Assembly (NCBI GenBank): GCA_964468655.1
Contig: CAYXUG010000003.1
Location: 1-63,306, forward strand
DNA: 63,306 bases
DNA from: an uncultured bacterium
Lineage (GTDB): Bacteria > Fidelibacterota > Marinisomatia > Marinisomatales > CAYXUG01
Reading direction: 5' to 3'
Shown one piece after another: positions 6,634 through 62,378 of this stretch. The notes under the pieces were generated by a model. The model made no database searches. It was not told the origin of the DNA and saw only the letters and a program-made list of their open reading frames with translations. The position numbers were made by a program, and so were the translations under genes. The first letter of the stretch is position 1; every line of letters starts with the position of its first letter.

Positions 6634-7514
6634 AGAAGTTCCTTATCATAATTGGGTTTTGGTTTTGCATCCTTTCTGGGCAGGTTACATCAGATTATCT
6701 GTACAAAGGTCCTCGAACAGCCGCATTGGCAGGTAGCTCTATCGGCCGAACAAGTGATGGCTGGGCAATCTTCAATAATCCTGCCGGGCTTTCTCAGGTG
6801 GAGGGAATGTCTATTGTTGCCGGTTCGCAAAAAATATTTAATCTATCTTTCCTGCCCTATACCGTGGCAGGCGGAACATTTAATCTGAAGAATGCCGGTG
6901 TTATTGGCGCTGGTGTGGAAACCATGTCTGTGAAATATGATGCTATCAAATTAACCAGTGAGACAGCCATCAGATTTAGTCACGGATTTTATCTGCAGAA
7001 AGATGTTATTTCTTCGCTTGCGTTTGGTTATTCGCTGAAATTCTTCCAGTTGGATTATGGTCAATCTGCCGGACCCTCCGGGGATGGAACCGATGGTGTA
7101 AATCTTGGAAAAGGTAATGCTATAGGACTTGATATAGGTTTGCAGGCATCTCTCCGCGATCGGCACTGGATTGGTGTATTTGTTTCAAATATTAATCGAC
7201 CTAAAATTGGAGAAGGGTCTACTTCAACTCCACTCCCTCAACGGCTTCAGGCAGGATTCGGCTATTCCCCGTATTCTGTAGTCTGGACATACTTCTCACT
7301 CACCAAAGCGGTGAATCACGATACTCAGTACCACGCCGGAATTGAGTACTACCTCTTTAAAAATATAAGATTAATGTTTGGGACGCATACCGGTCCTTCC
7401 CGGTTTGGTGCCGGTATTTCTGCTGATCTCAATTTTCTTAATATCAGCTACGGACTTATTACCCACCCTGTTTTACCATTAACGCATCAATTTTCCTTTG
7501 GAGCCAATCTGTGA
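6630..7514 (+). CDS. outer-membrane beta-barrel protein, FadL/PorV/PorQ-like
   Basis: ATGA overlap with the upstream stop at 6630/6633. Signal peptide MKKFLIIIGFWFCILSG. N-terminal motif: RTAALAGSSIGRTSDGWAIFNNPAGL. The rest has alternating beta-strand character. Confidence 0.55.
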   Translation: MKKFLIIIGFWFCILSGQVTSDYLYKGPRTAALAGSSIGRTSDGWAIFNNPAGLSQVEGMSIVAGSQKIFNLSFLPYTVAGGTFNLKNAGVIGAGVETMSVKYDAIKLTSETAIRFSHGFYLQKDVISSLAFGYSLKFFQLDYGQSAGPSGDGTDGVNLGKGNAIGLDIGLQASLRDRHWIGVFVSNINRPKIGEGSTSTPLPQRLQAGFGYSPYSVVWTYFSLTKAVNHDTQYHAGIEYYLFKNIRLMFGTHTGPSRFGAGISADLNFLNISYGLITHPVLPLTHQFSFGANL

Positions 7515-9961: not shown

Positions 9962-11300
9962 ACTCAGCAAAATATTCGCCGGTGTTTTTCTGATATCGTC
10001 CATGTTCGGACAGTCATATTTTAATGGAGTGGTGGGAGAATTCGTCTGGTTCGGGGATTCTCGATCCATGGCAATGGGACAAACCGGAATTGCCGAAAGT
10101 CACGGATTCTCCAATTTGTGGATAAATCCTGCCCTACTGAATATTGATGGTCGATTTTTGTTTGAATCTACGTTACAAGTAAAACGGTTGGAAGAGCAGA
10201 GGACATTCCCGGTGATTGATATGTTTGGAGATATTGTTACTGATAATATTTACAATGTTTCTTCAAAATGGTATCAAAATGAATCATTCGGCGCAGTTCT
10301 AAATTTACCATTGCTGCCATTTACACTGGCTATAGGTAAAGCGCCATTCCTCGATTTCAGATTCCAATATGATGAAGGCGTCCGTGGTAACTTGACTTCA
10401 TCCAATTATAACAGGGATCCATTGGTGGGGTATCATCGAATTTCATCTGATGGAAAAATTGATGCTGTCAGCGGCGGAATTGCCTTAAGATTGTTAGACC
10501 GCATCCATTTTGGTGTGAGCGGACATATACTCACCGCAAGTGAATTTTCAAGAAATTACTCCGTTATTGTGATTGAGTCTGATGATGCCTTGGCAGCAGA
10601 AGATACACTTATCTTTGAATCTAAATGGGAGATTGAAAAAGTGAAAATGAAACCTTCACTTGCGAAACCATATACTTTTTCCGTTGGTGGTTCCATTGAC
10701 TTCAATTGGCATATCAGTATTTCTGCAAATTACAGGAATGGTGTTCATTTTAAAACGAGTGACCTTTCTGTTGCGCCATCCATTGATGAAAATACACTGC
10801 TTCCGGCTTATTCTTGGAGGGAAGACAGTCTGAAAATTCAGTATGCTTACCCAGAAAAATATTCGTTGGGAATACGCTATCAACCGACCAATCCTATTCC
10901 TACAAAACTATTTGCTGAAATTCATTATACGGACTGGTCACAATTTAAAATTTCCTATTCCCGAAGAGTGAATGATGAGGACAGCTTTTCCCACAACTTC
11001 AGTGAGACTTATGAATTTCGTTTTGGATTGGAACACATGGTGTTGAGGAAAATACCATTTAGAGCAGGATTCATTTATGCGGAGTCACCTTATGGGAATG
11101 AACTGGATAGAAGTATTTTCACAATTGGCAGCGGTTTCAGTCCATTGGATAATTTGACTGTTGATGTGGCCGGGAAATTCACTACAAGCGAATACAAATA
11201 TGTTGATATTTTCCCTGCAGTGGGGCAAGAAAGCACTGAATTGGAAAATGTAAAAGAATCGATAGGTACTCTTTCAGTTACTATGAAGTATGAATTTTAA
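9951..11300 (+). CDS. outer-membrane beta-barrel protein, FadL/PorV-like
   Basis: 11-nt overlap with the upstream gene. Signal peptide. Motif: GDSRSMAMGQTGIAESHGFSNLWINPALL. C-terminal ...TMKYEF, with the terminal aromatic typical of OMPs. Confidence 0.55.
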   Translation: MRIKLSKIFAGVFLISSMFGQSYFNGVVGEFVWFGDSRSMAMGQTGIAESHGFSNLWINPALLNIDGRFLFESTLQVKRLEEQRTFPVIDMFGDIVTDNIYNVSSKWYQNESFGAVLNLPLLPFTLAIGKAPFLDFRFQYDEGVRGNLTSSNYNRDPLVGYHRISSDGKIDAVSGGIALRLLDRIHFGVSGHILTASEFSRNYSVIVIESDDALAAEDTLIFESKWEIEKVKMKPSLAKPYTFSVGGSIDFNWHISISANYRNGVHFKTSDLSVAPSIDENTLLPAYSWREDSLKIQYAYPEKYSLGIRYQPTNPIPTKLFAEIHYTDWSQFKISYSRRVNDEDSFSHNFSETYEFRFGLEHMVLRKIPFRAGFIYAESPYGNELDRSIFTIGSGFSPLDNLTVDVAGKFTTSEYKYVDIFPAVGQESTELENVKESIGTLSVTMKYEF

Positions 11301-11355
11301 TAAACAATTTATTCACTACTATCGTCTCCTTTTTACTAAGGAGGGAATTAAGTGG

Positions 11356-13308
11356 ATGTCTGAGTCAAAAACAAATACACCATCCATTGTCATTTCTGTA
11401 GTGCTAATATTAATTTTTTTTCTCCCATTTTTGTCAGCAAAGGATGGGATCGATCGCCTGCACATTATTTTTACCAATGATCTCCGTGGCGCGATTCAAT
11501 ATCAGGAGGCACCATTTATCAATCCTGAGTTTGCGCCAAGAGTAACCGGCGGTGCAGCTGCTTTGGAGTATCTGAATGATGTGAGGGAAATGGTATCCCA
11601 AAATGGTGAAGAAGTCCTCGTGTTGGATGGAGGTAATGTCTTTCAAGGGAATCCATTGGGTACTCGCGATGGAGGGGAAACCATTATGAAGTGGATGAAT
11701 CAGATGGGATATGATGCCATGACAGTGGGGAATTATGATTTTGATCAGGGTATTGAAAATGTGAGAAAGCTTTCCAGACTTGCTGAATTCCCTTTTTTGG
11801 GTGGAAATATTCTGGATGAATCCACTGGAAGGACTGTGGATTTTTGTGCTTCTTACATTATAAAAGAAATGATGGGAATGAGGGTTGCAATTATTGGTGT
11901 AACAACTTCATCTTTTCCTGAGATTACTGTTCCAGAGGCTGTTGCAGGTTTAAAATTTGAAAGAGAACTGCCGTATGTAAAAAAGGCAATAGAACAAGTA
12001 AAAGCTCAAGGAGCTGAAATTGTCATTCTCCTTGCCCATTTGGGACTGCCTTATGATATTGAAGATAAGTTTAAAGATTTCATTGATGATGTTTCAAATT
12101 CAAAAAAAGATTGGAATTCTGTTTCACTTAATGCAATGCAACTGGCACATTTTATCCAAGGAGTTGATGTCATCATTACAGGCCACATTACCAAGGGATA
12201 TAATGATCCATGGGAAGATCCTATGAGTCATGCCCTCTGTTTTCAGTCATATGGAAGTGGCACAAGCATTGGACATATAATATTGAATATAGACCGGCAG
12301 ACAAAACAGATGATTGGTTATGACACTCCCTCTGAAAGAGGCGCATTGATAACCTTATTTGATGATGATTTTCATCACAATTTTGATGGTGCTGATCAAA
12401 TTGAGGGTTGGCGGAAAATTGCTCAAAAGCAAGTCAGTAAACCAGTAAACCTACCAAGTAATAGTCGGACAGAAATATCAATTCAAGATAATTGGGCTAT
12501 TCCTTCATTCGGCAGTGACAACCGATTGGAAATCGCAACATGGAATATTGAATTTTTCCCAAAAGCAGGGGATACCACAATCGCTGCCATGGCGGAAGTG
12601 GTCAATGACTTGAATGTAGATATTATAGGGATTCAGGAAATCGGCAAGCGAGGTTCCTTCGCTGAAATGATGGCGCTTATTCCGGAGTACGATTATGTGC
12701 TCAGTCAGAGTTCATCTTTTTTCGATCAGGCCATCATTTACAAGAAAGAGTTTGTGACGGCGGTCTCCCAAAAAGATCTCTTTACATTTGAAGATTACTG
12801 GTTCGCCGGAAGACCTCCTTTGCAGGGAGATTTCATCTGGAATAATGGGGGAATTCAGTTCCCAGTTTCAGTGATTGATATACACATGAAATGCTGTGAT
12901 GACGGAATCTACCGTCGTAGTGTGGCGAGTAAAATGCTAGCTGATTATATAAAGGAAAAAATAGCTGGTGACAATTCCAATATTTTAGTTGTAGGAGACT
13001 GGAATGATGAAATTGATGATCCTTGGCATGAACAATCATTGAATCCATTTGTGCAGGATAAAGAAAATTTTTATTTTACTACTATTCCAATTCTCTACGA
13101 TCCAACTCAATATTCTTACCCATCTTGGCCAAGTTTCCTTGATCACATACTGATATCAAAAAGTCTGTTTTTTGAAAACAAATCATCGGGTAACACTCAA
13201 ACCATAAGATTACAGGATTACGTGGGGGGATGGGATGAATATGAAAGGATTCTTTCTGATCATTTACCGGTGGTCTGGTCTATTTCGTTTGAAAATTCTC
13301 CCAATTAG
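11356..13308 (+). CDS. membrane-anchored UshA-type 5'-nucleotidase/metallophosphoesterase fused to a C-terminal endonuclease/exonuclease/phosphatase (EEP) domain
   Basis: ATG at 11356 is preceded by AAGGAGG at 11339-11345. N-terminal anchor: IVISVVLILIFFLPFLSA. Metallophosphoesterase motifs: HIIFTNDLRG, LDGGNVFQG, GNYDFD, LAHLG. EEP motifs: IATWNIEFFPK, DIIGIQEI, VVGDWND, SDHLPVVW. Confidence 0.8.
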   Translation: MSESKTNTPSIVISVVLILIFFLPFLSAKDGIDRLHIIFTNDLRGAIQYQEAPFINPEFAPRVTGGAAALEYLNDVREMVSQNGEEVLVLDGGNVFQGNPLGTRDGGETIMKWMNQMGYDAMTVGNYDFDQGIENVRKLSRLAEFPFLGGNILDESTGRTVDFCASYIIKEMMGMRVAIIGVTTSSFPEITVPEAVAGLKFERELPYVKKAIEQVKAQGAEIVILLAHLGLPYDIEDKFKDFIDDVSNSKKDWNSVSLNAMQLAHFIQGVDVIITGHITKGYNDPWEDPMSHALCFQSYGSGTSIGHIILNIDRQTKQMIGYDTPSERGALITLFDDDFHHNFDGADQIEGWRKIAQKQVSKPVNLPSNSRTEISIQDNWAIPSFGSDNRLEIATWNIEFFPKAGDTTIAAMAEVVNDLNVDIIGIQEIGKRGSFAEMMALIPEYDYVLSQSSSFFDQAIIYKKEFVTAVSQKDLFTFEDYWFAGRPPLQGDFIWNNGGIQFPVSVIDIHMKCCDDGIYRRSVASKMLADYIKEKIAGDNSNILVVGDWNDEIDDPWHEQSLNPFVQDKENFYFTTIPILYDPTQYSYPSWPSFLDHILISKSLFFENKSSGNTQTIRLQDYVGGWDEYERILSDHLPVVWSISFENSPN

Positions 13309-28499: not shown

Positions 28500-29522
28500 T
28501 TGACTTCATTAAAGGAGTTAGCTGACTTAATTGATGGAGATGTAGAGGGTGATCCGGGATTAGAGATAAAAGGTGTTTCGGATATCAAAAAATCAACCGA
28601 AGGATCGATTTCCCTTTATCATGATAAAAGGTATCGAAAGTATCTGGGTGAAACAAAAGCTTCAGCTTTGGTTGTCTCAAAAAAGGAAAAAGTCGATAAG
28701 TTTGATTTAATCCGTGTAGAAAACCCGCTTTTAGCGTTTACAAAAGTTATTGCTTTTTTTACTCCTGTTGATGAAAAGGAAGATGGGATTCATCCAACGG
28801 CAATTTTAGCCGAAAATGTAAAGATAGGAAAAAATGTGATAGTAGGTCCCTGGACTATCCTAGAAAAAGATGTGGAATTGATGAATGAGGTGGTGGTGGG
28901 TGCACATTGTTATATTGGATCAGATTCAACAATTGGAAATTGTTCATCCCTTTTTTCCAACGTTATTCTCTATGAAAAAATCATTTTGGGTAAAAATGTG
29001 TTAATACACAGCGGCACTGTATTGGGAGCCGACGGATTTGGCTTTGTGACAGAAAATGATGAACATGCAAAAATTCCCCATACTGGCGGTGTTGAGATCA
29101 GGGACAATGTTGAAATAGGTGCGAACTGCGCAGTCGATAGAGGAACTTTTGGGAATACAGTGGTTGGTGAAGGATCAAAACTGGATGATTTTGTGCATGT
29201 AGGTCATAATGCCCAGATAGGGAAAGGATGCCTAATTGCCGGTAAGGTAGGTATCGCAGGTAGTTCCGTCATTGGGGATTATTCCGTTTTTGGCGGGCAG
29301 GCAGGTGTAGTGGATCATGTGGAAATTGGCGAAAGATCTAAGGTGGGCGCTCAGTCAGGGATTACAAAATCAATGCCCGGAAATCAGACGTACTCAGGAA
29401 TGCCTGCACGAGAACTGCATCAAAAAATAAAAGTCGATGCACTTGTTAATAAATTACCTGAAATTGTGAAAAGACTTAAGGATCTTGAAGAAACTGTAAC
29501 AAAACTCAAGGAAAATAAATGA
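28500..29522 (+). CDS. lpxD: UDP-3-O-acylglucosamine N-acyltransferase
   Basis: Left-handed beta-helix hexapeptide repeats, the LpxD N-terminal domain pattern (LAD.I.G...GD....I.GV) and synteny. Confidence 0.92.
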   Translation: MTSLKELADLIDGDVEGDPGLEIKGVSDIKKSTEGSISLYHDKRYRKYLGETKASALVVSKKEKVDKFDLIRVENPLLAFTKVIAFFTPVDEKEDGIHPTAILAENVKIGKNVIVGPWTILEKDVELMNEVVVGAHCYIGSDSTIGNCSSLFSNVILYEKIILGKNVLIHSGTVLGADGFGFVTENDEHAKIPHTGGVEIRDNVEIGANCAVDRGTFGNTVVGEGSKLDDFVHVGHNAQIGKGCLIAGKVGIAGSSVIGDYSVFGGQAGVVDHVEIGERSKVGAQSGITKSMPGNQTYSGMPARELHQKIKVDALVNKLPEIVKRLKDLEETVTKLKENK

Positions 29523-30433
29523 CAGCTTTTCAGAAAACAATTCAATCTCAAATATCCTGTGAAGGGTTTGGATTGCACACCGGGCAAAAGTCAGCTATCA
29601 CTTTTAAACCGGCAAATGAAAATTCAGGAATTCAGTTTGTAAGAAAAGATATTGATGATAAAACTGTCATTCCTGCATTGGTGGAATATGTGGCGGAAAC
29701 TAATAGAGGAACTACATTACTAAAAGGTGGAGTTAAAGTCGATACAGTGGAGCATGTACTCAGTGCTTTGAATGGCGTTGGGATTGATAATATTAATATA
29801 GAACTGGATGGACCGGAACCGCCTATAATGGACGGTAGCGCAAAAGTGTTTGTTGACATATTAACTGATGCCGGAATCAGGGAATTGAATTCAGAGCAGA
29901 TGCCGTTGATCATTGAAACACCGATCCATTTTTCATTACAGGGTAGAGATAGCACAATGGAAGTAATACCTTCGTTTGAAGCATGTTTTACCTACAAAAT
30001 TGACAACAAGGAAATATTTGGTTCGCAGGAAATGACACTTTTCACCATGGATGATTATACAACCCAAATTGCAGAAGCCCGTACATTTTGCTTTTTAAGC
30101 GAGGTAGAGGCGATTTACAATCACGGATTAGCCAAAGGCGGCAGTTTGGAGAATACGATTGTTTTTTCAGATTGTGATTTTGAGGATGTAGATGTAAATA
30201 TCCTGGGAAAAGAATTTGGATTAACGGAATCTCAAATGTGCAATTCCATTGGCGTTGTTGGAGATGTTTCCCTGAGATTTGAAAATGAACCAGTAAGACA
30301 TAAGCTACTGGACCTCATAGGTGATTTAACATTACTTGGGCGGCCAATTCAAGGACACATAACAGCAATAAATGCAGGTCACGAAATGCATATAGAATTT
30401 ATAAAAAAACTAAAGGAAGATTACTCGCTATGA
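29519..30433 (+). CDS. lpxC: UDP-3-O-acyl-N-acetylglucosamine deacetylase
   Basis: GFGLHTGQKSAITFKPA, TVEHVLSAL, RHKLLDLIGDL and GH..H motifs. ATGA coupling to lpxD. Confidence 0.93.
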   Translation: MTAFQKTIQSQISCEGFGLHTGQKSAITFKPANENSGIQFVRKDIDDKTVIPALVEYVAETNRGTTLLKGGVKVDTVEHVLSALNGVGIDNINIELDGPEPPIMDGSAKVFVDILTDAGIRELNSEQMPLIIETPIHFSLQGRDSTMEVIPSFEACFTYKIDNKEIFGSQEMTLFTMDDYTTQIAEARTFCFLSEVEAIYNHGLAKGGSLENTIVFSDCDFEDVDVNILGKEFGLTESQMCNSIGVVGDVSLRFENEPVRHKLLDLIGDLTLLGRPIQGHITAINAGHEMHIEFIKKLKEDYSL

Positions 30434-47120: not shown

Positions 47121-47657
47121 TTATTTTGTGAGGTGTAATTCCGACTGGACCTTCCAGTCTTTCAAATCTGTGGAAATATAATGTGTTCCTTTGTTGGTCA
47201 ATGCGATAAAGAACTGATCTGATCCTTCCATACCGGGGAGGACAGTGAGAGATATAAAATCTTCTCTTTCCTCAATTCTTCCGGCAAAAGAAAAAGTATC
47301 ACCTGCTGAAACAGGATTTTTATTTTCCATTTTGTAGATATTGCCGTAATTGGTCAGCAGAACAAATCCCAGAACCGGCGGCGCTACGCCGAACATGTAG
47401 TACGCGGAACTGATAATTTGTTCTTCTCCGTTTTCCAGATCGGAGAGTGATTTATTTATTCTCTCCAGCAGTTCGGGAGGTACAGATTCTCCTGACTTTC
47501 CCGATGGTCCCCGAGGTCCCATTTCTCCGGGGATACCCTGAATTCCCTGCGGTCCTTCTGGTCCTTGATGACCGGATTCTCCTTTTTTGACTAGAGATGA
47601 ACAACTAATAAATGCAAAGGTGATTAGGAGGAAACTAACCTGGATTAACTTAATCAT
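47121..47657 (-). CDS. lipoprotein with a collagen-like Gly-X-Y repeat and a C-terminal globular domain
   Basis: ATG at 47657 gives MIKLIQVSFLLITFAFISCSS, a lipobox-like leader. Eleven uninterrupted triplets: GES GHQ GPE GPQ GIQ GIP GEM GPR GPS GKS GES. ATGA overlap with the upstream gene. Confidence 0.6.
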   Translation of the reverse strand: MIKLIQVSFLLITFAFISCSSLVKKGESGHQGPEGPQGIQGIPGEMGPRGPSGKSGESVPPELLERINKSLSDLENGEEQIISSAYYMFGVAPPVLGFVLLTNYGNIYKMENKNPVSAGDTFSFAGRIEEREDFISLTVLPGMEGSDQFFIALTNKGTHYISTDLKDWKVQSELHLTK

Positions 47658-48217
47658 GACGCAGGAAAAAGATAAGGCAGCGCTCTTGCCCATGCCATGG
47701 ACATGATGATAAGAAGTTCTGATATAATAGCTATAGCGAAAAAGAGGATAGCACGCTTTAAAGCATTGTTTTTATAACTGTTAATTTTACCCAATGCATA
47801 AACTTGATGGGCAAACATTTCGAATACCTGCCCTTCTCTGCTAAATACATTTTCAAAATGGTTTGCATATTCTACAGGCGAATTAAATTTGCTGATTCCA
47901 CCGAAATAGGTAGGATTGTCTGCTATATCCATCTCTCCGTTTTTATCATTTTTTATTCGGGGTACAATTACCAATACAAGATTGATAATGGCAAAAAATG
48001 CCGAAATAAAATAACTCACCACCATAGCCACGTTGAACCAGTTTATGTTAATTTTCAGGAAATGGATAATAAAAAAGACCATAAATACACCCAGGATTGA
48101 AAGCATGGTAAATGCTTTCTGATCCGTTCGCTGCATAATTTGCTGTTCATTTGACAGCACATGGAAGATTGGAGCAATATTGCTTTTTACAAGCTGGGAG
48201 TAATCTCTATCATTCAT
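47654..48217 (-). CDS. three-TM membrane protein resembling the Pycsar effector / DUF5706 family
   Basis: RTDQKAFTMLSILG (the D-x-KA motif before TM1), a second TM, then PTYFGGISKF..EY......, and a C-terminal TM after KNNALKRAILFFAIAII. Assigned from memory of the family pattern only. Confidence 0.45.
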   Translation of the reverse strand: MNDRDYSQLVKSNIAPIFHVLSNEQQIMQRTDQKAFTMLSILGVFMVFFIIHFLKININWFNVAMVVSYFISAFFAIINLVLVIVPRIKNDKNGEMDIADNPTYFGGISKFNSPVEYANHFENVFSREGQVFEMFAHQVYALGKINSYKNNALKRAILFFAIAIISELLIIMSMAWARALPYLFPAS

Positions 48218-48282: not shown

Positions 48283-50034
48283 TCAATTGGTTAATTGTTC
48301 AGCCAGTACTGCGGTTTCCACCCATTCCATCTTTTTGGATGTTCCCGTTTCAACGGCTGTAATTTTCAGAATGTAAATTCCAATTCTTGCTCTTGAACTG
48401 TTATCCTTTCGACCATTCCAGGTGATGACACCCTCGGCGCCGGAAACAAGATTTTTTGCCAGCGTTCGTACCGTCCGGCCCAACCGATCAAAAATGGTAA
48501 TGGTCAAGTATGCCTGCGGAAATGGAAGTGAATAGGAGATATAAAGGTTATCTTCATATCCGTCACCATCCGGTGAAAAAGGATTGGGTTCAAGTGAAAT
48601 TGTTCCTGTTCCAGGTAGTGATTCAATAAAGATGCTGTTTTGATTTCCGGGCGTCATTTTTCCCGGCGCCACGCAGGTACCCCAACTTGATGGGACAGAT
48701 GAATCCATCTCCGGATTTAATTTTTCCATTGATCTCCCCTCAACTCCCCAGTCATCGGTATAGGTGAGTGAATCCATGACATTCCCGGATGGATCGTACA
48801 GGTAAATAGAATCACCTGAATTGTTGAGAGAAGGGAACCCGTTTTCCGGTACAAGGAGGATAGAGTTGGAGGGTAGTGATGGAAGAAGTGAAGAATCTTT
48901 GGCAATCACAACAAATGAAGAGGAAGGTGTTTCTATATCAGGAAGTATTTTAATTGATGAAGTCAGCTGATCCGAAATTCCCCAGCCGGAAAGGTTGATA
49001 CTGTTTTCTGACAAGATAAAAATTTCAATAAATTCAGAGTTATTTTCTTCCGGATAATACATGAATTCGTTCAGGGTCGCCACTCTTTCTGTATATTGAA
49101 CTGACAGCTCGTAACCTAAAGTATTATTTTCCTGATTGAGATCATCCTCCACGTTCAATTGAATGGTGAGTGAATGATGCCCGGATGAAAGAAGTCCAAT
49201 ATTAATTGACAAGATCGTAGAGTCGCCTGATGCGGTCGGTGTAAATGATGAACTTCCAAGTATCAGAAAATCTTCACTTATTTCAACTGTGCCTGAAATC
49301 TCATTCAATCCTTCATTAAAAACGGTTATGTTAAAAGTGATGAAATCGGAGGGAGATGGATTTGAGGGTGTATGAAAAATGCTGTTTTCAGAAATTGCTC
49401 CATCTATTTCAGCGGGAGTAACACTGTTTACAAATCCCGGTGTACCCCACACCTCTAAACCGGATGTCCAGTTTTCCGGTTCACCCGGCAAATCAAGTCG
49501 AATCCGTTCAAGAGAATATCCCGGCTCAACTTCATCATCCCAACTGACCGAATCGACAATGATTCCTTCGGTGTTTATCAGCTTGAGTGAATCTGTTTTA
49601 TTCAGAGCATTCCCAATTGCAGGTCCATCAATTTTCAAAATGGTTACCGAATCCGGAATGAGATTAAAATATGGGCTCGAATCATTGTGTTCGTAATCCG
49701 CTTCCATGATGAGTCCGAAAGACAAAGGAGGCAAAGTTGTACCCATTCCGCCGTCAACAATCATGTCCTCAGATGAAGCGTCCCGAACAATCCATGAATT
49801 CAGATTCACAGAATCGGTTTCCGACGAATTATAAATTTCAACAAATTCGTTGGGATTGTCGGTCCCTTCCGGATCGTACATGATTTCTGAGAGTACAATC
49901 TGCCCCACAGAAAATGAAAAGGGAAGCAGCAGTGCCGGGAGTATTTTGAATCGTTGATTAATGTTCTTCCAGGAATTTTTTAATGTATTTCTGAATAGTA
50001 TCCCTGCAGTCCCGGTAATTATCGAGGAATTCAT
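48283..50034 (-). CDS. secreted protein with two lamin-tail domains and a FlgD-Ig/T9SS-like C-terminal domain
   Basis: LTD 1: IVLSEIMYDPEGTDNPNEFVEIYNSSETDSVNLNSWIVRD. LTD 2: ATLNEFMYYPEENNSEFIEIFILSENSINLSGWGISD. C-terminus: EPNPFSPDGDGYEDNLYISY...LTITIFDRLGRTV...GIYILKI. The only canonical start (50034) overlaps arsC by 77 nt. Confidence 0.7.
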   Translation of the reverse strand: MNSSIITGTAGILFRNTLKNSWKNINQRFKILPALLLPFSFSVGQIVLSEIMYDPEGTDNPNEFVEIYNSSETDSVNLNSWIVRDASSEDMIVDGGMGTTLPPLSFGLIMEADYEHNDSSPYFNLIPDSVTILKIDGPAIGNALNKTDSLKLINTEGIIVDSVSWDDEVEPGYSLERIRLDLPGEPENWTSGLEVWGTPGFVNSVTPAEIDGAISENSIFHTPSNPSPSDFITFNITVFNEGLNEISGTVEISEDFLILGSSSFTPTASGDSTILSINIGLLSSGHHSLTIQLNVEDDLNQENNTLGYELSVQYTERVATLNEFMYYPEENNSEFIEIFILSENSINLSGWGISDQLTSSIKILPDIETPSSSFVVIAKDSSLLPSLPSNSILLVPENGFPSLNNSGDSIYLYDPSGNVMDSLTYTDDWGVEGRSMEKLNPEMDSSVPSSWGTCVAPGKMTPGNQNSIFIESLPGTGTISLEPNPFSPDGDGYEDNLYISYSLPFPQAYLTITIFDRLGRTVRTLAKNLVSGAEGVITWNGRKDNSSRARIGIYILKITAVETGTSKKMEWVETAVLAEQLTN

Positions 50035-50386
50035 CGTCGGTACTCCATCCGCTGAAAGGATCAGATATAGACCAGTGGATTCGTTTCACATCTCCCGGAA
50101 ATGTGGGACATAACTGCTTCGCCGAATCACAGACAGAAATAACAATATCAATCCCTTGATCAAGATAATCCGCCACATGATCGGATGTGTGGTGTGAAAT
50201 GTCAATTCCCATTTCATCCATGATTTTAATACTCATGGGATGGACTCTGCTGGGATGAGTGCCGGCGCTGAAAACATCAAATTTGTCTCCTGCCAAATTA
50301 CGCAACAATCCTTCAGCCATTTGTGATCGGCAGGAATTCCCGGTACAGAGGAATAGGAGCTTTTGTTTTTGTGATTTACCGTTCAT
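49958..50386 (-). CDS. arsC: arsenate reductase (thioredoxin-coupled, LMW-PTPase fold)
   Basis: LFLCTGNSCRSQMAEG P-loop plus downstream Cys residues (SVCDSAKQLCP). Confidence 0.82.
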   Translation of the reverse strand: MNGKSQKQKLLFLCTGNSCRSQMAEGLLRNLAGDKFDVFSAGTHPSRVHPMSIKIMDEMGIDISHHTSDHVADYLDQGIDIVISVCDSAKQLCPTFPGDVKRIHWSISDPFSGWSTDDEFLDNYRDCRDTIQKYIKKFLEEH

Positions 50387-50883
50387 GAAAGAATTTTTAT
50401 CACTGTTTCGTAATCCGGTTCCTGACCAATGTGAGGTACCTGTTCGGTATGAATGACTTTTCCTTCTGCATCTATAACAACAACCGCCCTTGAAAATAGA
50501 CCTTTAAAAAGTCCATCTGTAAAAGTGACACCATAATTTTTGCCAAAGTCATCATCACGAAAACCGGAAAGAGTGATTACATTTTCAATTCCTTCTTTGC
50601 CGCAGAATCTGCTTTGTGCAAAAGGGAGATCACGGGAAATGCAGAGAATGACTGTATTATTCAGTTTTGCTGATTCCTCATTGAATCTCTTGACCGATGT
50701 ACCGCAAACGTGAGTATCAATGCTTGGGAAAATATTCAGCACAATCCGCTCACCTTCATAATCGGAAAGTGTTACTTCCTTCAAGCCGGTTGTCACCAAA
50801 CGGAAGTCCGGTGCCTTTGAGCCAACAGCTGGCAATTCACCGATTGTATTCACAAGTTTATTTCCAAATCTTACCTGTGCCAT
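50383..50883 (-). CDS. tpx: thiol peroxidase
   Basis: ATG at 50883: MAQVRFGNKLVNTIGELPAVGSKAPDF...LNIFPSIDTHVCGTS...DLPFAQSRFCG. Confidence 0.9.
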   Translation of the reverse strand: MAQVRFGNKLVNTIGELPAVGSKAPDFRLVTTGLKEVTLSDYEGERIVLNIFPSIDTHVCGTSVKRFNEESAKLNNTVILCISRDLPFAQSRFCGKEGIENVITLSGFRDDDFGKNYGVTFTDGLFKGLFSRAVVVIDAEGKVIHTEQVPHIGQEPDYETVIKILS

Positions 50884-50980
50884 GAGGTTCAAATGTGAAT
50901 AGAATTCATCAATTTTGCAAGTGTTGGTTTTATCTAATTGCCACAAAGTCACGAAGACACGAAGAAAAAATAAATTTATA

Positions 50981-53866: not shown

Positions 53867-54014
53867 TTAAATTATCCCGCAGGGTACTGTGTACAATTTT
53901 CAATCAAAATCCACATTCCGCAAACATTCAACGGTTGTCTTGAGCATTTGATCTGTCTAAATTTGCAAAAATAAAAATCATTGATAATAAGTATTTATAA
54001 AAGGAGACTAATTC

Positions 54015-54659
54015 ATGTTGGTAACAAAACCTGCGCCGGATTTTACAGCAAAAGCTGTCATGCCGGACAACAGCATAAAAGAGATTTCACTTTCCGATTA
54101 TAGGGGAAAAAAGGTTATTCTATTTTTTTATCCGCTGGATTTTACATTTGTTTGACCCACTGAACTTATCGCATTCAACAACCGATTAGGTGAGTTTGAA
54201 AAGCGAGGTGTCCAGGTCCTGGGCTGTTCAGTAGATTCAGAATTCAGTCATTTAAAATGGAAGGAAACAGATGTTAACATGGGTGGGATTGGTAATGTTC
54301 AATATCCATTGATTTCAGATTTGGACAAATCAATTGTTCGGGAATATGATGTTCTCATTGGTGCCGAACCTGTAACGGTAATAATGGATAATGAAGGAAT
54401 TAACACATCAATCGGCGGAGGCGTTGCCCTTCGGGGGTCTTTTCTTATTGATGATGAAGGAGTTATCAGGCACGCTGTTATTAACGACTTGCCTTTAGGT
54501 CGAAACATCGATGAAATGCTCAGAATGGTGGACGCTCTCGATTTTCATACCAAACACGGCGATGTTTGTCCTGCTGGATGGCAATCAGGTAAAACAGCCA
54601 TGAAAGCCACGAATGAAGGTGTTAAAAAATATCTTTCCGAGGAAGTAGGAAGTTTATGA
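54015..54659 (+). CDS. typical 2-Cys peroxiredoxin (AhpC/Prx1 type) with in-frame TGA at the peroxidatic Cys position; probable selenocysteine-containing peroxiredoxin
   Basis: SD AAGGAG at 54001-54006 and ATG at 54015. Translation: [49 protein letters not shown](54153-54155)[35 protein letters not shown]. It continues in frame into track ORF 54279-54659 ([13 protein letters not shown]...[26 protein letters not shown]...AL......HGDVCPAGW). The canonical motif is DFTFVCPTE. Confidence 0.8.
54159..54195 (+). promoter_or_regulatory. candidate bacterial SECIS hairpin immediately 3' of the in-frame UGA
   Basis: CUUAUCG (54165-54171) pairs with CGAUUAG (54183-54189) with one U-U mismatch and an 11-nt loop. 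ACU (54159-54161) pairs with AGU (54193-54195) below it. Folded by eye only, and the loop lacks the G/U I would expect. Confidence 0.3.
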
Positions 54660-54742: not shown

Positions 54743-55555
54743 GTGAAGGAATTTTTTCTCAATCAGCACCCCATTATGCAGGCGTTGTTAGCGACAACGT
54801 TCACATGGGGATTGACCGCTTTAGGTGCATCAGTAGTATTTTTCTTTAAAACACTGAACAGGCGAGTGCTGGATGCCATGCTGGGATTTACCGGTGGTGT
54901 CATGATTGCTGCAAGTTTCTGGTCCCTTTTGTCCCCTGCCATTGAAATGTCCGAAAACGGTCCGCTGCCTTCGTGGCTGCCGCCGGCAATCGGATTCCTG
55001 GTAGGCGGTGGAGTCATCTGGGGATTGGACAAGGTTTTGCCTCACTTGCATATCGGATATCCCAAATCTGATGCGGAAGGTATTCAAACCACATGGCACA
55101 GAACGACGCTGGTTGTCCTTGCAATTACGCTTCATAATTTTCCGGAAGGTCTAGCAGTTGGAGTGGCATTCGGTGCGCTGGCCGCTGATCTTCCTTCAGC
55201 GAATCTTGCCGGCGCTATAGCGCTTACCATGGGAATCGGACTGCAAAATTTCCCCGAAGGTTTTGCCGTTGCCATGCCTCTGAGACGAGTTGGAGTTTCT
55301 CGGTTCAAAAGTTTCTGGTACGGGCAATTGTCCGCTGTTGTGGAACCCGTTGCCGGTGTTTTGGGAGCGGTGATTGTTGTCTCATCAACTGCCATTCTGC
55401 CATACGCCCTTGCCTTCGCGGCGGGTGCAATGATTTACGTGGTCGTGGAGGAAGTAATTCCCGAAGCACAGTATGAAGGTAATACAGATTTGTCAACTTT
55501 GGGACTCATGGCGGGATTTACAATCATGATGGCTTTGGATGTTGGGTTGGGATAA
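54743..55555 (+). CDS. zupT: ZIP-family divalent metal transporter
   Basis: GTG start. Polytopic. [10 protein letters not shown] and QNFPEGFAV motifs. Confidence 0.85.
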
Positions 55556-55559
55556 TGCC

Positions 55560-56795
55560 ATGAAATTACTTTTACGTACTACCTTATTTATTTTACTGTT
55601 CATCATTTTTCAACAGTGCGATTTTTTCTTTCCGGAGGAAGTTGACCCCAATCTACTGCTGGACGGACCCGTTGACGGATTAACCAATGTGCAAAAGGCA
55701 ACATTCGCTGAAGGTGATGAAGCTTTTGGTCAGAATTTTTCTGCCTCCACCGGGTTGGGACCTGTATTCAACCACATAGCCTGCATCGCCTGCCATGCGG
55801 GCGATGGAAAGGGACATCCTTTTTCAAACCTGACTCGATTCGGAAAAGGCAACTCCGACAATTCAGAAGAATTTGACTACATGATAGAATATGGAGGACC
55901 GCAGCTTCAAAATCGGGCAATTCCCGGGTATGAGTCCGAAGTCCTTCCTGGTGATGCCACCGGTGTTTCTGAACGGAGCGCTCTCATTGTAGTAGGCGTG
56001 GGTTTTCTGGAAGCAGTTTCGGATGATACTCTGCTTGCTTTGGCAGACCCGGATGATGACGATGGAGACGGCATCAGCGGTCGTGTCAATTATGTTAATC
56101 CACCTGATTTCTTTGTTCCAAAAAGTCATCATATTTCTGACCCGTACGGAAAATACATCGGTCGCTTCGGCAGAAAAGCCAAAGCCATTGATCTGCTTCA
56201 CCAGACCTCAGGGGCATATATTGATGATATGGGGATTACAACGGACTTTTTTACGGAAGATTTATACAATCCTTTAGAAGGTCAGTTTACGGGGGACAAC
56301 GTTCCCGATCCTGAAGTGGGCTCCGATGTGGTGGCGAATGTGGTATTTTATCTGCGTACCCTGAAACCGCCCAAACCGAGAAATCAGGATGACCCGGATG
56401 TAATGGCTGGCGACTCTCTGTTTAATGTCATTGGATGTGCCGGCTGCCACCTCCCAACCTTGACAACGGGATTTTCTTCTGTTAGTGTACTGTCTGAAAC
56501 AGAATTTCATCCCTATACTGATCTATTGCTCCATGACATGGGTGAAGAACTCGCGGATTACTATCCAGAAGGGGGCGCAACGGGAACAGAATGGAGAACC
56601 ACCCCACTTTGGGGACTTGGATTGATTCAGGATAATCTCGGCGGAATTCCGTACTACCTGCATGATGGCCGGACATCTGATTTGACCGAGGTGATTCGTC
56701 TGCATCAGGGAGAGGCATTACAAAGCAGTGATAATTTTGATAATCTGAGCGGAAATGAAAAGGAACAGGTGCTGAAGTTTCTGGAATCTTTATAA
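55560..56795 (+). CDS. di-haem cytochrome c oxidoreductase/peroxidase-like protein (DUF1111 family)
   Basis: ATG at 55560 gives the leader MKLLLRTTLFILLFIIF. Two haem-binding CxxCH motifs (CIACH, CAGCH). GLGPVFN..AC..CH and RTTPLWGLG fit the family pattern. Confidence 0.8.
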   Translation: MKLLLRTTLFILLFIIFQQCDFFFPEEVDPNLLLDGPVDGLTNVQKATFAEGDEAFGQNFSASTGLGPVFNHIACIACHAGDGKGHPFSNLTRFGKGNSDNSEEFDYMIEYGGPQLQNRAIPGYESEVLPGDATGVSERSALIVVGVGFLEAVSDDTLLALADPDDDDGDGISGRVNYVNPPDFFVPKSHHISDPYGKYIGRFGRKAKAIDLLHQTSGAYIDDMGITTDFFTEDLYNPLEGQFTGDNVPDPEVGSDVVANVVFYLRTLKPPKPRNQDDPDVMAGDSLFNVIGCAGCHLPTLTTGFSSVSVLSETEFHPYTDLLLHDMGEELADYYPEGGATGTEWRTTPLWGLGLIQDNLGGIPYYLHDGRTSDLTEVIRLHQGEALQSSDNFDNLSGNEKEQVLKFLESL

Positions 56796-57217
56796 TGGAA
56801 AGCAGAAGGGAATTTTTAAAGCAAGCCGGAACGCTGGGAGTTGTTGCTGCCTGCGGCGGACTGCCTGTCCTGCTGGAAGGATGCCTGCCTGTACCTTATG
56901 TGGAATCGATCCGGAAGGGAAGGACTTTAGAGGTTTCTCTACTTTCATTTGAGGATGGAAACAGAATCTATGTGAAGCACCCGGAGTTTAAAGCGCCCAT
57001 ATTAATTCAAAAAAGCAGTGAAATTGAATATTCAGCTTTGCTCATGATTTGTACCCACAAAGGATGCCGCCCGAGGGCTGCTGAGTTTTCTTTAAAATGC
57101 CCCTGCCATGGAAGCAGATTTGATCTTAACGGCAAAGTCCTCAGGGGACCTGCTGAAAAACACCTTCCGTCATTTCCGGTTAATCTTAATGTTGATCAAC
57201 TGGTGATTTCAATCTGA
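56795..57217 (+). CDS. Tat-exported Rieske [2Fe-2S] protein
   Basis: Twin-arginine leader MESRREFLKQAGTLGVVAA. Rieske motifs CTHKGC and CPCHGSRF. The start overlaps the upstream stop (TAATG). Confidence 0.85.
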   Translation: MESRREFLKQAGTLGVVAACGGLPVLLEGCLPVPYVESIRKGRTLEVSLLSFEDGNRIYVKHPEFKAPILIQKSSEIEYSALLMICTHKGCRPRAAEFSLKCPCHGSRFDLNGKVLRGPAEKHLPSFPVNLNVDQLVISI

Positions 57218-57218
57218 T

Positions 57219-58388
57219 ATGAGCCACAGAATAATTATATCGATTTTATTTTTTGTGGGAATAGGTTATGCACAACCGGATTCCACCGTCCATGATATTT
57301 ATGACCGTCCCTTTGTTTTTCAGAAGGAGAATTTCGCATCCTTCGGCGGATATTTTGAAGCGAACTCAAATTACGTGGTGGAGGAAGGAATTACGGAAGG
57401 GTTGTCCTTTGAGGCGAGACGATTTAACATTTTCTTTTATTCGCACATATCGCCCATGGTGCGGTTCTTTTCCGAATTGGAGTTTGAGCATGGTACCGAA
57501 GAAATTGCGCTGGAAACTGCCATCGTTGATCTTATGCTTCATCCGCTGTTCAATTTTCGGGTGGGGGTTCTTCTGCCTCCTCTGGGAAGATTTAACGTGC
57601 TTCACGACAGTCCCAAATACAACATCATTGACCGCCCTCTCGTATCTACGAAAATCATCCCCTCCACGCTGATGGAAGTAGGGAAAGGATTTTTCGGCAA
57701 TAAGGAATTGAGTCCCACCACTGAATTCGGCTATGAACTCTATTTTGTGAATGGATTAACAGATGGAATTCTCGATAATGAAGATGGCGCTACCAGAATC
57801 GCCTCGGGAAAGAATGAAGAAATGTTTGAAGAAGATAACAACGGGACACCCTCTATAACTGGAAGGTTGGGATTTGAAAGTCGACTTACAGGCGAGGTGG
57901 GATTATCATTCTATAAGGGTGTTTACAATTCGTTTATGATGGAAGGTGAAGTTGTTGATGAAAAAAGATTTGTTCAGATTACTGCCTTGGATTTTGACAA
58001 ACAATTTTCGCGATTAACAATTCAGGGTGAACTCGCAAAAGCAAAAATTGATATTCCTGCAAACCTGGAAGAGATCTTTGGCAGTGAACAGACAGGCGGT
58101 TATGTGGATATCGGGTACACTTACCGGAGAGGCAGATTATTCAGTTTTGACGATCTGCAGATGATTGCAACATTTCGGTTCGATAGAGTTGACTTGAATG
58201 TGGGTAAGTTCGGTTCCACCAACACAAACATCGGGGATGAAACAACCAGAATTACAGTCTCGAATTCTTTCCGCCCATCTGAGGATACTGCATTTAAAAT
58301 GGTCTATTTTTATGAATGGCACAAAGATCTGCAGGATAATCTCATTCGGACGGGCGGTTGGCAGTTTGGTGTTGCCACCTATTTTTAA
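57219..58388 (+). CDS. putative outer-membrane porin-like beta-barrel
   Basis: Signal peptide. Alternating strands. SELEFEHGTEEIALETAIVD....NFRVGVLLPPLGRFN is porin O/P-like. C-terminus GVATYF. Confidence 0.5.
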   Translation: MSHRIIISILFFVGIGYAQPDSTVHDIYDRPFVFQKENFASFGGYFEANSNYVVEEGITEGLSFEARRFNIFFYSHISPMVRFFSELEFEHGTEEIALETAIVDLMLHPLFNFRVGVLLPPLGRFNVLHDSPKYNIIDRPLVSTKIIPSTLMEVGKGFFGNKELSPTTEFGYELYFVNGLTDGILDNEDGATRIASGKNEEMFEEDNNGTPSITGRLGFESRLTGEVGLSFYKGVYNSFMMEGEVVDEKRFVQITALDFDKQFSRLTIQGELAKAKIDIPANLEEIFGSEQTGGYVDIGYTYRRGRLFSFDDLQMIATFRFDRVDLNVGKFGSTNTNIGDETTRITVSNSFRPSEDTAFKMVYFYEWHKDLQDNLIRTGGWQFGVATYF

Positions 58389-60146: not shown

Positions 60147-62378
60147 ATGGATTTTGACCTAAAAGTATTTCGAGCTGAAAAGTTAAATCTAACTCAGAAA
60201 ACATTAAGTGAGTTACTTAAAGTAGAGCAATTTCAGATTTCACGATGGGAAAATAACCCCTCAAAATTACCATTTAGGGTATTTCTCGATCTTTGCAAAA
60301 TATCAGGAATGACACCTGATCAGTTGGTAGAAGACGTCGAACTTCCCAAACCGGATATTGTAGATTTCGGAAATCCATATAAAGAACGAGACATTAGGAT
60401 AAGTATGTTAAATGAATACTGCGAAGTTGGTTTAAATCAATTAATTGAGAAGAAAGAAGAACCTGAATTAATTGAAGATTTAATTGAAGAACTTCGAAAT
60501 ATTCGTAACTGTATTGGTGAAAAACCTGTAGTAGCTGTAATGGGAAAATTTGATAGTGGGAAGAGTCGACTTATAAATTGTATGACAGGAATTGATGCAA
60601 TTGTTTGTCAGTGGACACCAACGACAAAAATAGCTACCTATATAAAACATATTGATAATCGGCCAGATTTTATCAATGAAAGTGTCTGGATATTTAAAAA
60701 TGGTGATAACTCAAATAAAATCTGGAATTTCAGACGTTACCGTGATGAAAAGTACTGTAAAAAATGGATGTTAGACAAAGGAGGATTCGATATACTTAAA
60801 AAATATGGCACTTATGATGTTGAAAATGATAATGAAAATAATAATGCTCATAGTGCTCTTGTATTCATGAAATCTCCTATTTTAAAAGCCTGTGATTTAA
60901 TTGATCTACCAGGATTTGGGAGCAGTAAAGGAAAGAAACGGGATGAAGAATTAAAAAGCCAAGATGCATTAAAATTTGCGGACTTGGTAATATACATGTC
61001 TAAGATTAACGGCTTTATAGAAATCGAAGATATCGAATTTATATCAATGATAATAAGAGAAAAGGCAGGGATCGCACCTATTGAGAAAGAGGAGGATACA
61101 TTTGATAAAATTATTGTTGTTGCATCACAAGCTCATATTGAATCAAACAAAGAAGTGCGGGATCAAACAATTGAAAAAAGAACAGAAGAATTATTTGAAA
61201 GACTGTCAATGAGGACAAAACAAACAATCAAAAAAGCAGGTGGAACACCAACATATGAATTATTAAGAAAACAATTTGTAACCTATAGCCTGGATAATCG
61301 TTCTCTTCGAGAGGATTTTAATATTAAACTGAAAAACAGTTTAATGAACAGTTTCCCACCTAAAATTATCTCAATGCAAGATGCAATGATTACAGAGTTT
61401 AAGAAACATGCGCAAGATAAATTATCTAATGAAATAAATAAAACTGAATCCATAATGTCAGACTATGATTCGGTTAAGAAACAATATGAAAAAGCCAAAT
61501 CTAATAGACCCAAAGCTAAAAAGGAGATAAAAGCCATAAAAGAATCGATTAATAAAAAAATAAATTCTTCGAGCAAGAATTGCATAAGTGATTTTGATGA
61601 TTGGTGGACAGAGAATATTACCCCCCCCAAAGTTTCACGCGAAATTGAAAACAGAAATTATAATAGAAAAGAAGCAACAGAAAGAATCGGTGGAATTATC
61701 ATGGGCAATATCCAAGATTCTTACCAAAGTATTTGTGAAGAGAATTTCAACAAGGTAAAACCTGATATTGGAAAGCTTTTCAAAGAATATGAAAATCAAG
61801 CAGAATTTCTTGCTATTAAAGACCCAGAGGGACAAAATATTCCTTTCGATTATCAGGGTTTATTAAAAGGTGCATTTGGCGCCGCAAGCGTTTTAGGAGG
61901 TCTTACTATTTGGGCAAGTACATTAGGCAATTTAGGGTGGTATATAATTGCTTCTAAGGGTGTAAGCCTTTTATCTGCAATTGGGATTTCAACGGGGGGT
62001 ACGGCAGCTGCAACAGCATTCTTGGCTACAATAGGTGGTCCCATAACGGTTGCTGCAGGAATAGCTATTGCTATTGCAATTGGTATCAAATCATTGTTTG
62101 GTGAATCATGGCAGAAGAGACTATCAAAACAATTATATAAAATTATGAAACAAGAGGGAATAAAAAATAAATCAAAAAAAGTCATTAATAAGTTTTGGGA
62201 GGACACATCTAATGGTATTGAAGAAGTAACCGTGAATATGGATAAGAAAATTGATGATTATATCCATAGCATGAAAATTACTTTAGATGAGCATGACCCT
62301 AAAAAACTTAAAAACAAGATTGATAATTGTAAAGAGTATAATAAATTTTTTGAGGGGTTACCTTGGATATCAATTTAA
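60147..62378 (+). CDS. fusion protein: XRE-type HTH + dynamin-like P-loop GTPase + coiled-coil stalk + Gly/Ala-rich membrane hairpin
   Basis: SD AGGAG at 60136-60140. HTH: LTQKTLSELLKVEQFQISRWENN. GTPase motifs: G1 MGKFDSGKS, WTPTT, G3 DLPGFG. K/E-rich helical region from about aa 400 to 560. Hydrophobic glycine-zipper block: GAFGAASVLGGLTIW...IGGPITVAAGIAIAIAIGIKSLFG. Confidence 0.7.
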   Translation: MDFDLKVFRAEKLNLTQKTLSELLKVEQFQISRWENNPSKLPFRVFLDLCKISGMTPDQLVEDVELPKPDIVDFGNPYKERDIRISMLNEYCEVGLNQLIEKKEEPELIEDLIEELRNIRNCIGEKPVVAVMGKFDSGKSRLINCMTGIDAIVCQWTPTTKIATYIKHIDNRPDFINESVWIFKNGDNSNKIWNFRRYRDEKYCKKWMLDKGGFDILKKYGTYDVENDNENNNAHSALVFMKSPILKACDLIDLPGFGSSKGKKRDEELKSQDALKFADLVIYMSKINGFIEIEDIEFISMIIREKAGIAPIEKEEDTFDKIIVVASQAHIESNKEVRDQTIEKRTEELFERLSMRTKQTIKKAGGTPTYELLRKQFVTYSLDNRSLREDFNIKLKNSLMNSFPPKIISMQDAMITEFKKHAQDKLSNEINKTESIMSDYDSVKKQYEKAKSNRPKAKKEIKAIKESINKKINSSSKNCISDFDDWWTENITPPKVSREIENRNYNRKEATERIGGIIMGNIQDSYQSICEENFNKVKPDIGKLFKEYENQAEFLAIKDPEGQNIPFDYQGLLKGAFGAASVLGGLTIWASTLGNLGWYIIASKGVSLLSAIGISTGGTAAATAFLATIGGPITVAAGIAIAIAIGIKSLFGESWQKRLSKQLYKIMKQEGIKNKSKKVINKFWEDTSNGIEEVTVNMDKKIDDYIHSMKITLDEHDPKKLKNKIDNCKEYNKFFEGLPWISI

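Follow-up and report, generated by a model that had tools for sequence, protein, structure and literature searches.

Peroxiredoxins (Prx) that carry selenocysteine (Sec) in a TxxU motif form an established and abundant family of marine selenoproteins, as surveys of prokaryotic and marine selenoproteomes record (PMC13188914; Global Ocean Sampling (GOS), PMC2398784). Experimentally, this family was founded on PrxU of Eubacterium acidaminophilum (Sohling et al., 2001, cited in PMC13188914), and the GOS paper counts 253 Sec-Prx sequences in 34 samples (PMC2398784). Here, a probable member of the family is described from the contig CAYXUG010000003.1 (GCA_964468655.1) of an uncultured bacterium, whose complete stretch of 63,306 nucleotides (nt) is referred to as the window. 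Positions 54015-54659 of the forward strand are best read as one functional gene for a typical 2-Cys Prx (Prx1/AhpC-like) with Sec at the peroxidatic position, a reading to which a probability of about 0.9 is assigned from sequence comparisons. With the known Prx selenoproteins (PF00578, TxxU) the predicted protein shares the AhpC-TSA fold, the T44-F-V-U47 motif, a hairpin directly 3' of the UGA and a marine habitat, and here too Cys homologues far outnumber the Sec forms.

The gene is preceded by a Shine-Dalgarno-like AAGGAG (54001-54006, + strand), located 8 nt 5' of the ATG at 54015. From this ATG, the frame passes through a single in-frame TGA (54153-54155, +) and continues without any shift through the called open reading frame (ORF) at 54279-54659 up to the terminal TGA at 54657-54659, an arrangement that had been noticed in an earlier model-made reading of the same letters (the original prediction) and that direct reading of the sequence confirms. 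The complete selenoprotein coding sequence would thus comprise 214 codons (54015-54659, +) with Sec as residue 47, as suggested by its translation, Pfam matches, full-length homologues and the split gene calls in public data, where gene callers break it into fragments of 46 and 126 amino acids (aa), as they do in the window. If Cys is placed at the TGA, the read-through protein matches the Pfam families AhpC-TSA (PF00578; E = 3.1e-39, 134 bits against a cutoff of 26) and 1-cysPrx_C (1e-12), both halves fit the Prx fold, and the full-length identity to 214-aa peroxiredoxins of Marinimicrobia amounts to 66-79%. The TGA occupies the place of the peroxidatic Cys in the PxxxTxxC motif, which reads P40-L-D-F-T44-F-V-U47 with the putative Sec codon U47 replacing Cys. 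As originally proposed, it aligns with a Cys: the 15 proteins nearest to it in the databases, each 214 aa long and 72-79% identical, all have Cys47. The resolving Cys185 (TGT, 54567-54569, +), which had been recognized within HGDVCPAGW, lies in V184-C185-P186-A-G-W, is invariant in the alignment of relatives and matches solved structures, as 2h01 and 4l0w carry the same motif, VCPA(N/G)W. Given the base composition of the window, 167 stop-free codons after the TGA are expected by chance with P ~9e-6 per lineage; together with the match of both halves to the Prx fold, this indicates that the frame did not arise by chance.

One base change suffices to turn the TGA into a Cys codon, and the TGA might in principle stand for a TGT or TGC that was misread or misassembled. 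The downstream 126-aa ORF is recorded in exactly this form on 16 contigs, which stem from independent TARA, JGI, ENA and Logan samples, and codon 47 is TGA in 10/10 of the assemblies examined among them. As these derive from different samples, projects and assemblers, and as the TGA also recurs in 26 related copies, an error is excluded, its probability being negligible. A second explanation is that a nonsense mutation became fixed in the population and left a pseudogene, with a 46-residue stub or no product at all. The splitting of the gene by gene callers would agree with this, and the ten assemblies are virtually clonal, so that on their own they would be compatible with a recently fixed lesion. 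The gene is otherwise identical among them save for one contig (L124, 420-536), in which a T to A change at gene position 117 (window 54131) turns Tyr39 from TAT into TAA and thus adds a second stop, which reflects either an error due to low coverage or a true null allele of the population.

More distant copies of the gene speak against such decay. Among 80 related metagenome loci, codon 47 is TGT in 39, TGC in 36 and TGA in five. These five TGA loci (L131, L134, L137, L138 and L140) encode proteins with 66-76% aa identity to the window Prx in 214-codon frames that are uninterrupted save for the TGA. The N-terminal fragment of 46 aa, which stops at the TGA, falls into a 90%-identity cluster comprising 39 distinct members; among the 15 members listed, 14 have a length of 46 aa and one of 65 aa, and several are found on 10-48 contigs each. 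Via five members of this cluster, 21 further loci (L211-L231) were reached, all of which have TGA at codon 47, while the complete copies show no further stop before codon 215. In total, 27 Sec-type copies are available and every complete one is intact. Pairwise comparison of six diverged Sec-type genes over codons 48-214 yields a ratio of nonsynonymous to synonymous substitution rates (dN/dS) of 0.08-0.24 where dS can be estimated, and otherwise a ratio of the corresponding proportions of differences (pN/pS) of <=0.34, with synonymous sites downstream of the TGA near saturation (pS 0.53-0.79). The low dN/dS values imply that translation continues past the TGA and that purifying selection acts on the codons that follow. 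A lesion fixed by decay would have to account for the same TGA in five orthologues and 21 further copies without another stop or frameshift over 167 downstream codons, for open frames whose chance occurrence lies at ~9e-6 in each lineage, and for the fact that the Sec-type genes form a subclade of their own, which makes the TGA old. On this sequence record, the pseudogene reading is effectively refuted, and the further disruptions in orthologues that had been named as a refuting outcome in the original prediction are not seen in the TGA-bearing orthologues.

As to the residue inserted at codon 47, a general reassignment of the code can be set aside because TGA serves as an ordinary stop for 14 of the 54 long ORFs in the window, including the sites 6631-6633, 29520-29522 and 30431-30433 that had been put forward for this argument in the original prediction. 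A search for further in-frame TGAs flanked on either side by 40 or more open codons returned, elsewhere in the window, only candidates that a longer ORF in a different frame or the normal end of a gene accounts for.

For bacterial Sec insertion, a selenocysteine insertion sequence (SECIS) is expected in the RNA downstream of the UGA, and RNA folding of this region, which the original prediction had proposed as a check, identified a candidate hairpin of 38 nt (54169-54206, +; -9.6 kcal/mol on its own) as the RNAalifold consensus of six Sec-type genes. RNA folding places a spacer of 13 nt (54156-54168, +) between the UGA and the hairpin; in the alignment, the UGA occupies columns 1-3 and the consensus helix columns 17-54. 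The lower stem is formed by UCGC (54169-54172) and GCGA (54203-54206) and can be extended to UCGC(U)UU pairing with AA(A)GCGA, while the apical loop GAUUA (54184-54188) begins 28 nt past the UGA. Bacterial SECIS prediction of the bSECISearch type allows for apical loops at a distance of ~16-37 nt from the UGA. The hairpin is part of the minimum free energy structure in 5/6 diverged Sec-type genes and in 13/14 unique Sec-type sequences, compared to 0/5 Cys-type orthologues of the same clade. Standard base pairs fill 95.8% of the cells of the Sec-type alignment, against 24-50% once the 3' side of the helix is shifted by 1-3 columns. In the Cys-type alignment, 73% of the cells are paired; the lower stem is mostly broken and pairs 20-51 and 21-50 are open in 4/5 sequences, with the upper part of the helix being retained in the Sec-type and Cys-type sets alike.

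The lower stem coincides with the codons Ile52 ATC, Ala53 GCT, Lys63 AAG and Arg64 CGA, the last of which is found in 6/6 Sec-type genes. Where pairs of Sec-type genes share the same residue at these positions, the codon is identical in 50/55 comparisons (91%) versus 48% over the remainder of the gene; for pairs of Cys-type genes, the corresponding values are 5/27 (18.5%) and 40.5%. Several of the stem codons are minority codons in the host genome (CGA 11% of Arg, ATC 23% of Ile, AAG 25% of Lys). Since these minority synonymous codons are fixed in the TGA-bearing genes alone, selection at the RNA level that is specific to those genes is indicated. A tendency towards structure is also visible at a larger scale: in a set of genes from many phyla, the 63 nt after the codon fold more stably in 122 Sec-Prx genes than in 75 Cys-Prx genes (mean z-score -0.53 vs +0.09; Mann-Whitney p = 6.5e-6). 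Based on these comparisons, we infer that the hairpin at 54169-54206 is a putative SECIS element at the distance typical of bacteria. The central claim of the original prediction, that the gene encodes a Sec-Prx, is thereby upheld by four independent lines of evidence, namely the TGA in 10 assemblies, its retention in 5 + 21 relatives, strong purifying selection on codons 48-214 and a hairpin that is conserved in the Sec-type genes only.

Several observations weigh against the Sec-Prx reading, among them the codon-39 stop of L124 mentioned above. Taken alone, the hairpin of the window folds no better than shuffled sequences (z = -0.78 and -1.08) and is non-significant, and it is therefore the comparison across orthologues, not the fold of the window sequence, that makes it convincing. 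It is short and contains an A.A mismatch at pair 21-50. A covariation test of the six Sec-type sequences detected one compensatory pair and did not exceed its shuffle control; with covariation almost absent, support for the structure comes from the Sec-specific synonymous conservation instead. A G/U in the loop is thought to be important for SelB of Escherichia coli, yet the loop sequence differs between lineages and the loop G/U is not kept in L138 and L140. The whole window lacks a match to any Rfam family at the gathering threshold. In addition, Pfam and NCBIfam scans detected no selA, selB or selD among the window ORFs of at least 120 aa, and searches with ARAGORN and Rfam found no tRNA-Sec, nor indeed any tRNA gene, in the 63 kb. 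Single-cell genomes are usually incomplete. Three of them from SAR406 are classified as 'orphan SelD', with no SelA/SelB or selenoprotein genes detected (Peng et al., 2016, Table 1, PMC5029168), and in the searchable literature SAR406 appears in a selenium context only under this label (PMC5029168). The presence of SelD in these genomes (PMC5029168) is compatible with a Sec trait, yet provides no evidence for SelA, SelB or tRNA-Sec. The residual doubt about the Sec-Prx reading consists almost wholly of this unobserved Sec machinery.

It is at this point that decoding of UGA47 as Cys, Trp or Gly has to be weighed, be it through near-cognate read-through, a Cys-charged Sec-like tRNA or a reassigned code. 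For some bacteria, a SelB-dependent route by which Sec-like tRNAs recode UGA to Cys has been proposed. The missing Sec machinery in the window and the SAR406 single-cell genomes with SelD and without SelA/SelB (PMC5029168) would suit such a scenario, and the purifying selection downstream of the TGA demonstrates continued translation and not the residue that is inserted. Nevertheless, TGA terminates 14/54 ORFs of the same window, and the sole unexplained in-frame TGA sits exactly at the redox-active Cys in a family that already uses Sec, which is the signature of a Sec/Cys pair. Moreover, a dedicated hairpin that is kept against codon preference is a requirement of SelB-dependent decoding, whereas simple read-through could do without it. 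Non-Sec decoding is consequently considered improbable, although less remote than the pseudogene or an erroneous base, and insertion of Sec remains the preferred reading.

Under the Sec-Prx reading, the hairpin would act as SECIS element and, in line with established bacterial Sec biology, recruit the SelB.GTP.Sec-tRNA(Sec) complex to the ribosome, so that UGA47 would be decoded as Sec rather than terminating translation. By analogy with Prx enzymology, the selenolate of U47 would attack the peroxide and be converted to a selenenic acid, which Cys185 of the partner subunit would resolve into an intersubunit selenenylsulfide. A thioredoxin-type reductant would then reduce the selenenylsulfide.

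With respect to its subfamily, the window enzyme is assigned by sequence to the typical 2-Cys Prx (Prx1/AhpC-like) with a resolving Cys and is not an equivalog of PrxU. The nearest solved structures are the Plasmodium 2-Cys Prx 2h01 (E = 2e-68), 4l0w, 6khx, Helicobacter pylori AhpC (1zof) and PRDX1/PRDX2. The typical 2-Cys enzymes (2h01, 4l0w, human PRDX1/2, 1zof) resemble the window Prx over the full length, including the PxxxTxxC context, the C-terminal VCP motif and the 1-cysPrx_C domain, and differ from it in having Cys at the peroxidatic position and in lacking a loop of ~18 residues. Among the NCBIfam models, 'peroxiredoxin C' (PRK15000) scores best with 248.3 bits, which is below its cutoff of 301; AhpC proper (TIGR03137) reaches 135.9 bits against 272, and no ahpF-like gene is present next to the window Prx. 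The PrxU model NF040737 (peroxi_PrxU) yields 154.2 bits with a cutoff of 270. Thus, of the comparison with PrxU of E. acidaminophilum that had accompanied the original prediction, the Sec at the peroxidatic position holds, whereas a PrxU-type protein does not (154 bits vs 270). Both proteins carry this Sec within D-F-T-F-V-U-P-T-E and both are presumed to depend on thioredoxin, but they belong to different subfamilies and the window Prx keeps the resolving VCPAGW.

A scan of species-representative genomes for D-F-T-F-V-TGA-P-T-E returned at least 120 genomes. The matches listed include Chloroflexota, Desulfobacterota, Bacillota (with cultured Neobacillus and Rossellomorea), Ignavibacteria, Zixibacteria and others; no locus titled as Marinimicrobia is among the matches listed (at least 120), which says nothing about absence. 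Most Sec-Prx of other phyla (L001-L120) among these listed matches show the pattern UPTEL[AS]AVA..., have no VCPxxW and share 35-45% identity with the window Prx. This pattern agrees with the NCBIfam PrxU model; the window Prx instead displays UPTELIAF..R..F..R together with VCPAGW. In other phyla, the combination of Sec and VCPxxW occurs, among the matches listed, only in two metagenome-assembled genomes (MAGs) of Deltaproteobacteria (L004, L074) and two of Planctomycetota (L076, L101). These four loci share the TGA at the peroxidatic position and VCPxxW with the window gene, but their products are 45-54% identical to it, do not contain the Marinimicrobia-type loop and branch outside the Marinimicrobia Prx clade; from their sequences, they look like independent switches between Cys and Sec. 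The same scan revealed a Cytophagia MAG (L067) in which the motif is found at 5867-5892 and at 6869-6894, 1 kb apart, corresponding to two tandem Sec-Prx genes of which one has VCPxxW. PrxU-type Sec-Prx genes were also observed in cultured Bacillaceae (L005, L026, L042, L044, L048, L089 and L100), namely Neobacillus mesonae, N. rhizosphaerae, Rossellomorea spp., Bacillus sp. and Pseudalkalibacillus, and these isolates would represent tractable hosts for Sec-Prx experiments.

The additional loop is formed by residues 116-135 (54360-54419, +) and sits between YDVL and VALRG, where alignments to 2h01 and 4l0w show a gap. An insertion of ~15 aa relative to the canonical Prx1 loop had been predicted. 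The insertion is real, with ~18 extra residues relative to the solved structures, but it is not special to the gene: every close relative, whether Cys- or Sec-type, has it, while L141 lacks it and L142 has a different insert. As it is common to Cys- and Sec-type relatives, the surface loop is a trait of the Marinimicrobia Prx clade and has no connection with the Sec codon. Neighbour-joining places the six diverged Sec-type genes together in one subclade within this loop-bearing clade.

GOS Dataset S1 (PMC2398784) contains Sec reads of the same loop-bearing 2-Cys subfamily (JCVI_READ_1091141379870 and 1093018634039). A Sec-bearing GOS read groups with the Cys-type locus L139 (83.5% identity, vs ~70% to the window Prx). 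Its position beside a Cys-type gene and apart from the window subclade implies that the Cys/Sec state has changed at least twice. The GOS Sec reads thus differ from the window lineage in forming a separate Sec subclade, and while no organism is stated for them in the Sec-Prx passages of the GOS paper (PMC2398784), the window gene resides on a 63-kb Marinimicrobia contig. Taken together, we lean towards the broader proposal that Marinimicrobia/SAR406 combine a working Sec decoding system with a widespread subclade of Sec-containing 2-Cys Prx and at least two Cys/Sec switches in one tight orthologue family, a proposal that is held with clearly less confidence than the identity of the gene itself.

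The window corresponds to nearly all of the ENA contig ERZ27286381:k119_1760872 (63,434 bp). Its gene content is that of an ordinary chromosome, including BamA, OmpH, LpxD/C/A, FabZ, Dxr, RseP, Adk, CoaE and several proteins sorted by the type IX secretion system. All named relatives of the window Dxr come from Marinimicrobia/Neomarinimicrobiota/Fidelibacterota with <=67% identity, besides one other hit at 93%, and the named relatives of the window Prx belong to the same phylum. By sequence similarity, the host is thus placed in a sparsely sampled lineage of Marinimicrobia (SAR406/Fidelibacterota). A second selenoprotein gene is not evident in the window. The UshA/5'-nucleotidase-like ORF at 11290-13308 was considered and rejected, as it scores 72 bits against 275 for the NCBIfam model 'UshA-like (seleno)protein' and has neither a C-G-x motif nor an in-frame TGA. 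The GOS paper describes a SelW-like selenoprotein gene adjoining some Prx genes (PMC2398784). No SelW-like gene was found downstream of Sec-Prx at 12 related loci, where only tRNA-Ser genes or a membrane protein were present. A pair of tRNA-Ser(TGA) and tRNA-Ser(GCT) genes lies 3' of Sec-Prx in L131 (5609-5783), L134 (4786-4957) and L140 (5521-5698); neither is a tRNA-Sec. The window has a ZIP transporter gene in place of this pair, so that synteny differs between Sec-type lineages.

This ZIP metal transporter gene opens the region directly 3' of the Prx gene (54743-58388), which further encodes a protein resembling di-haem cytochrome c peroxidases (DHOR, 3e-61), a Rieske [2Fe-2S] protein and a protein of 389 aa that matches no Pfam family. 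The region may represent a redox or peroxide-related gene cluster, and its gene order recurs on other contigs. About 3 kb upstream of Sec-Prx, a second Redoxin/AhpC-TSA thioredoxin-fold protein of 189 aa with an N-terminal extension of ~40 residues is encoded at 49958-50952 (- strand), and its gene overlaps by 4 nt with an LMWPc gene (low-molecular-weight phosphotyrosine phosphatase/ArsC-like). At 47121-48217 (-), a 187-aa PycTM (Pycsar effector transmembrane) protein (7e-14) overlaps an ORF of 190 aa that weakly matches collagen repeats. Together they may be a relic of a defence-related locus; no cyclase is evident beside the PycTM gene. Finally, the 743-aa protein encoded at 60147-62378 shows an unusual architecture, in which an N-terminal helix-turn-helix domain (HTH_19/HTH_3) is joined to a dynamin-family GTPase.

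In kind, the finding is known: Sec-Prx are long-established, and the same loop-bearing subfamily is already contained in the 2008 GOS dataset (PMC2398784). The new elements are modest and comprise the placement of the gene in a Marinimicrobia genome, the delineation of a candidate SECIS hairpin and the recognition of a typical 2-Cys rather than a PrxU-type enzyme. For annotation, the implication is direct, as the mis-called pair of 46-aa and 126-aa proteins on dozens of public contigs should be recorded as one selenoprotein. The 'orphan SelD' status of SAR406 (PMC5029168) may reflect an unrecognized Sec trait. The typical 2-Cys Prx of the Marinimicrobia clade occur as close relatives with either Sec or Cys and offer a natural pairing to address what Sec buys, for example resistance to over-oxidation, and, if the Sec-Prx reading is true, they would be natural matched Sec/Cys pairs of an enzyme that needs to form a selenenylsulfide with a resolving Cys. 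Few uncultured groups of bacteria in the dark ocean are as abundant as Marinimicrobia/SAR406, and the gene indicates that a lineage of this phylum uses selenium in its front-line defence against peroxides.

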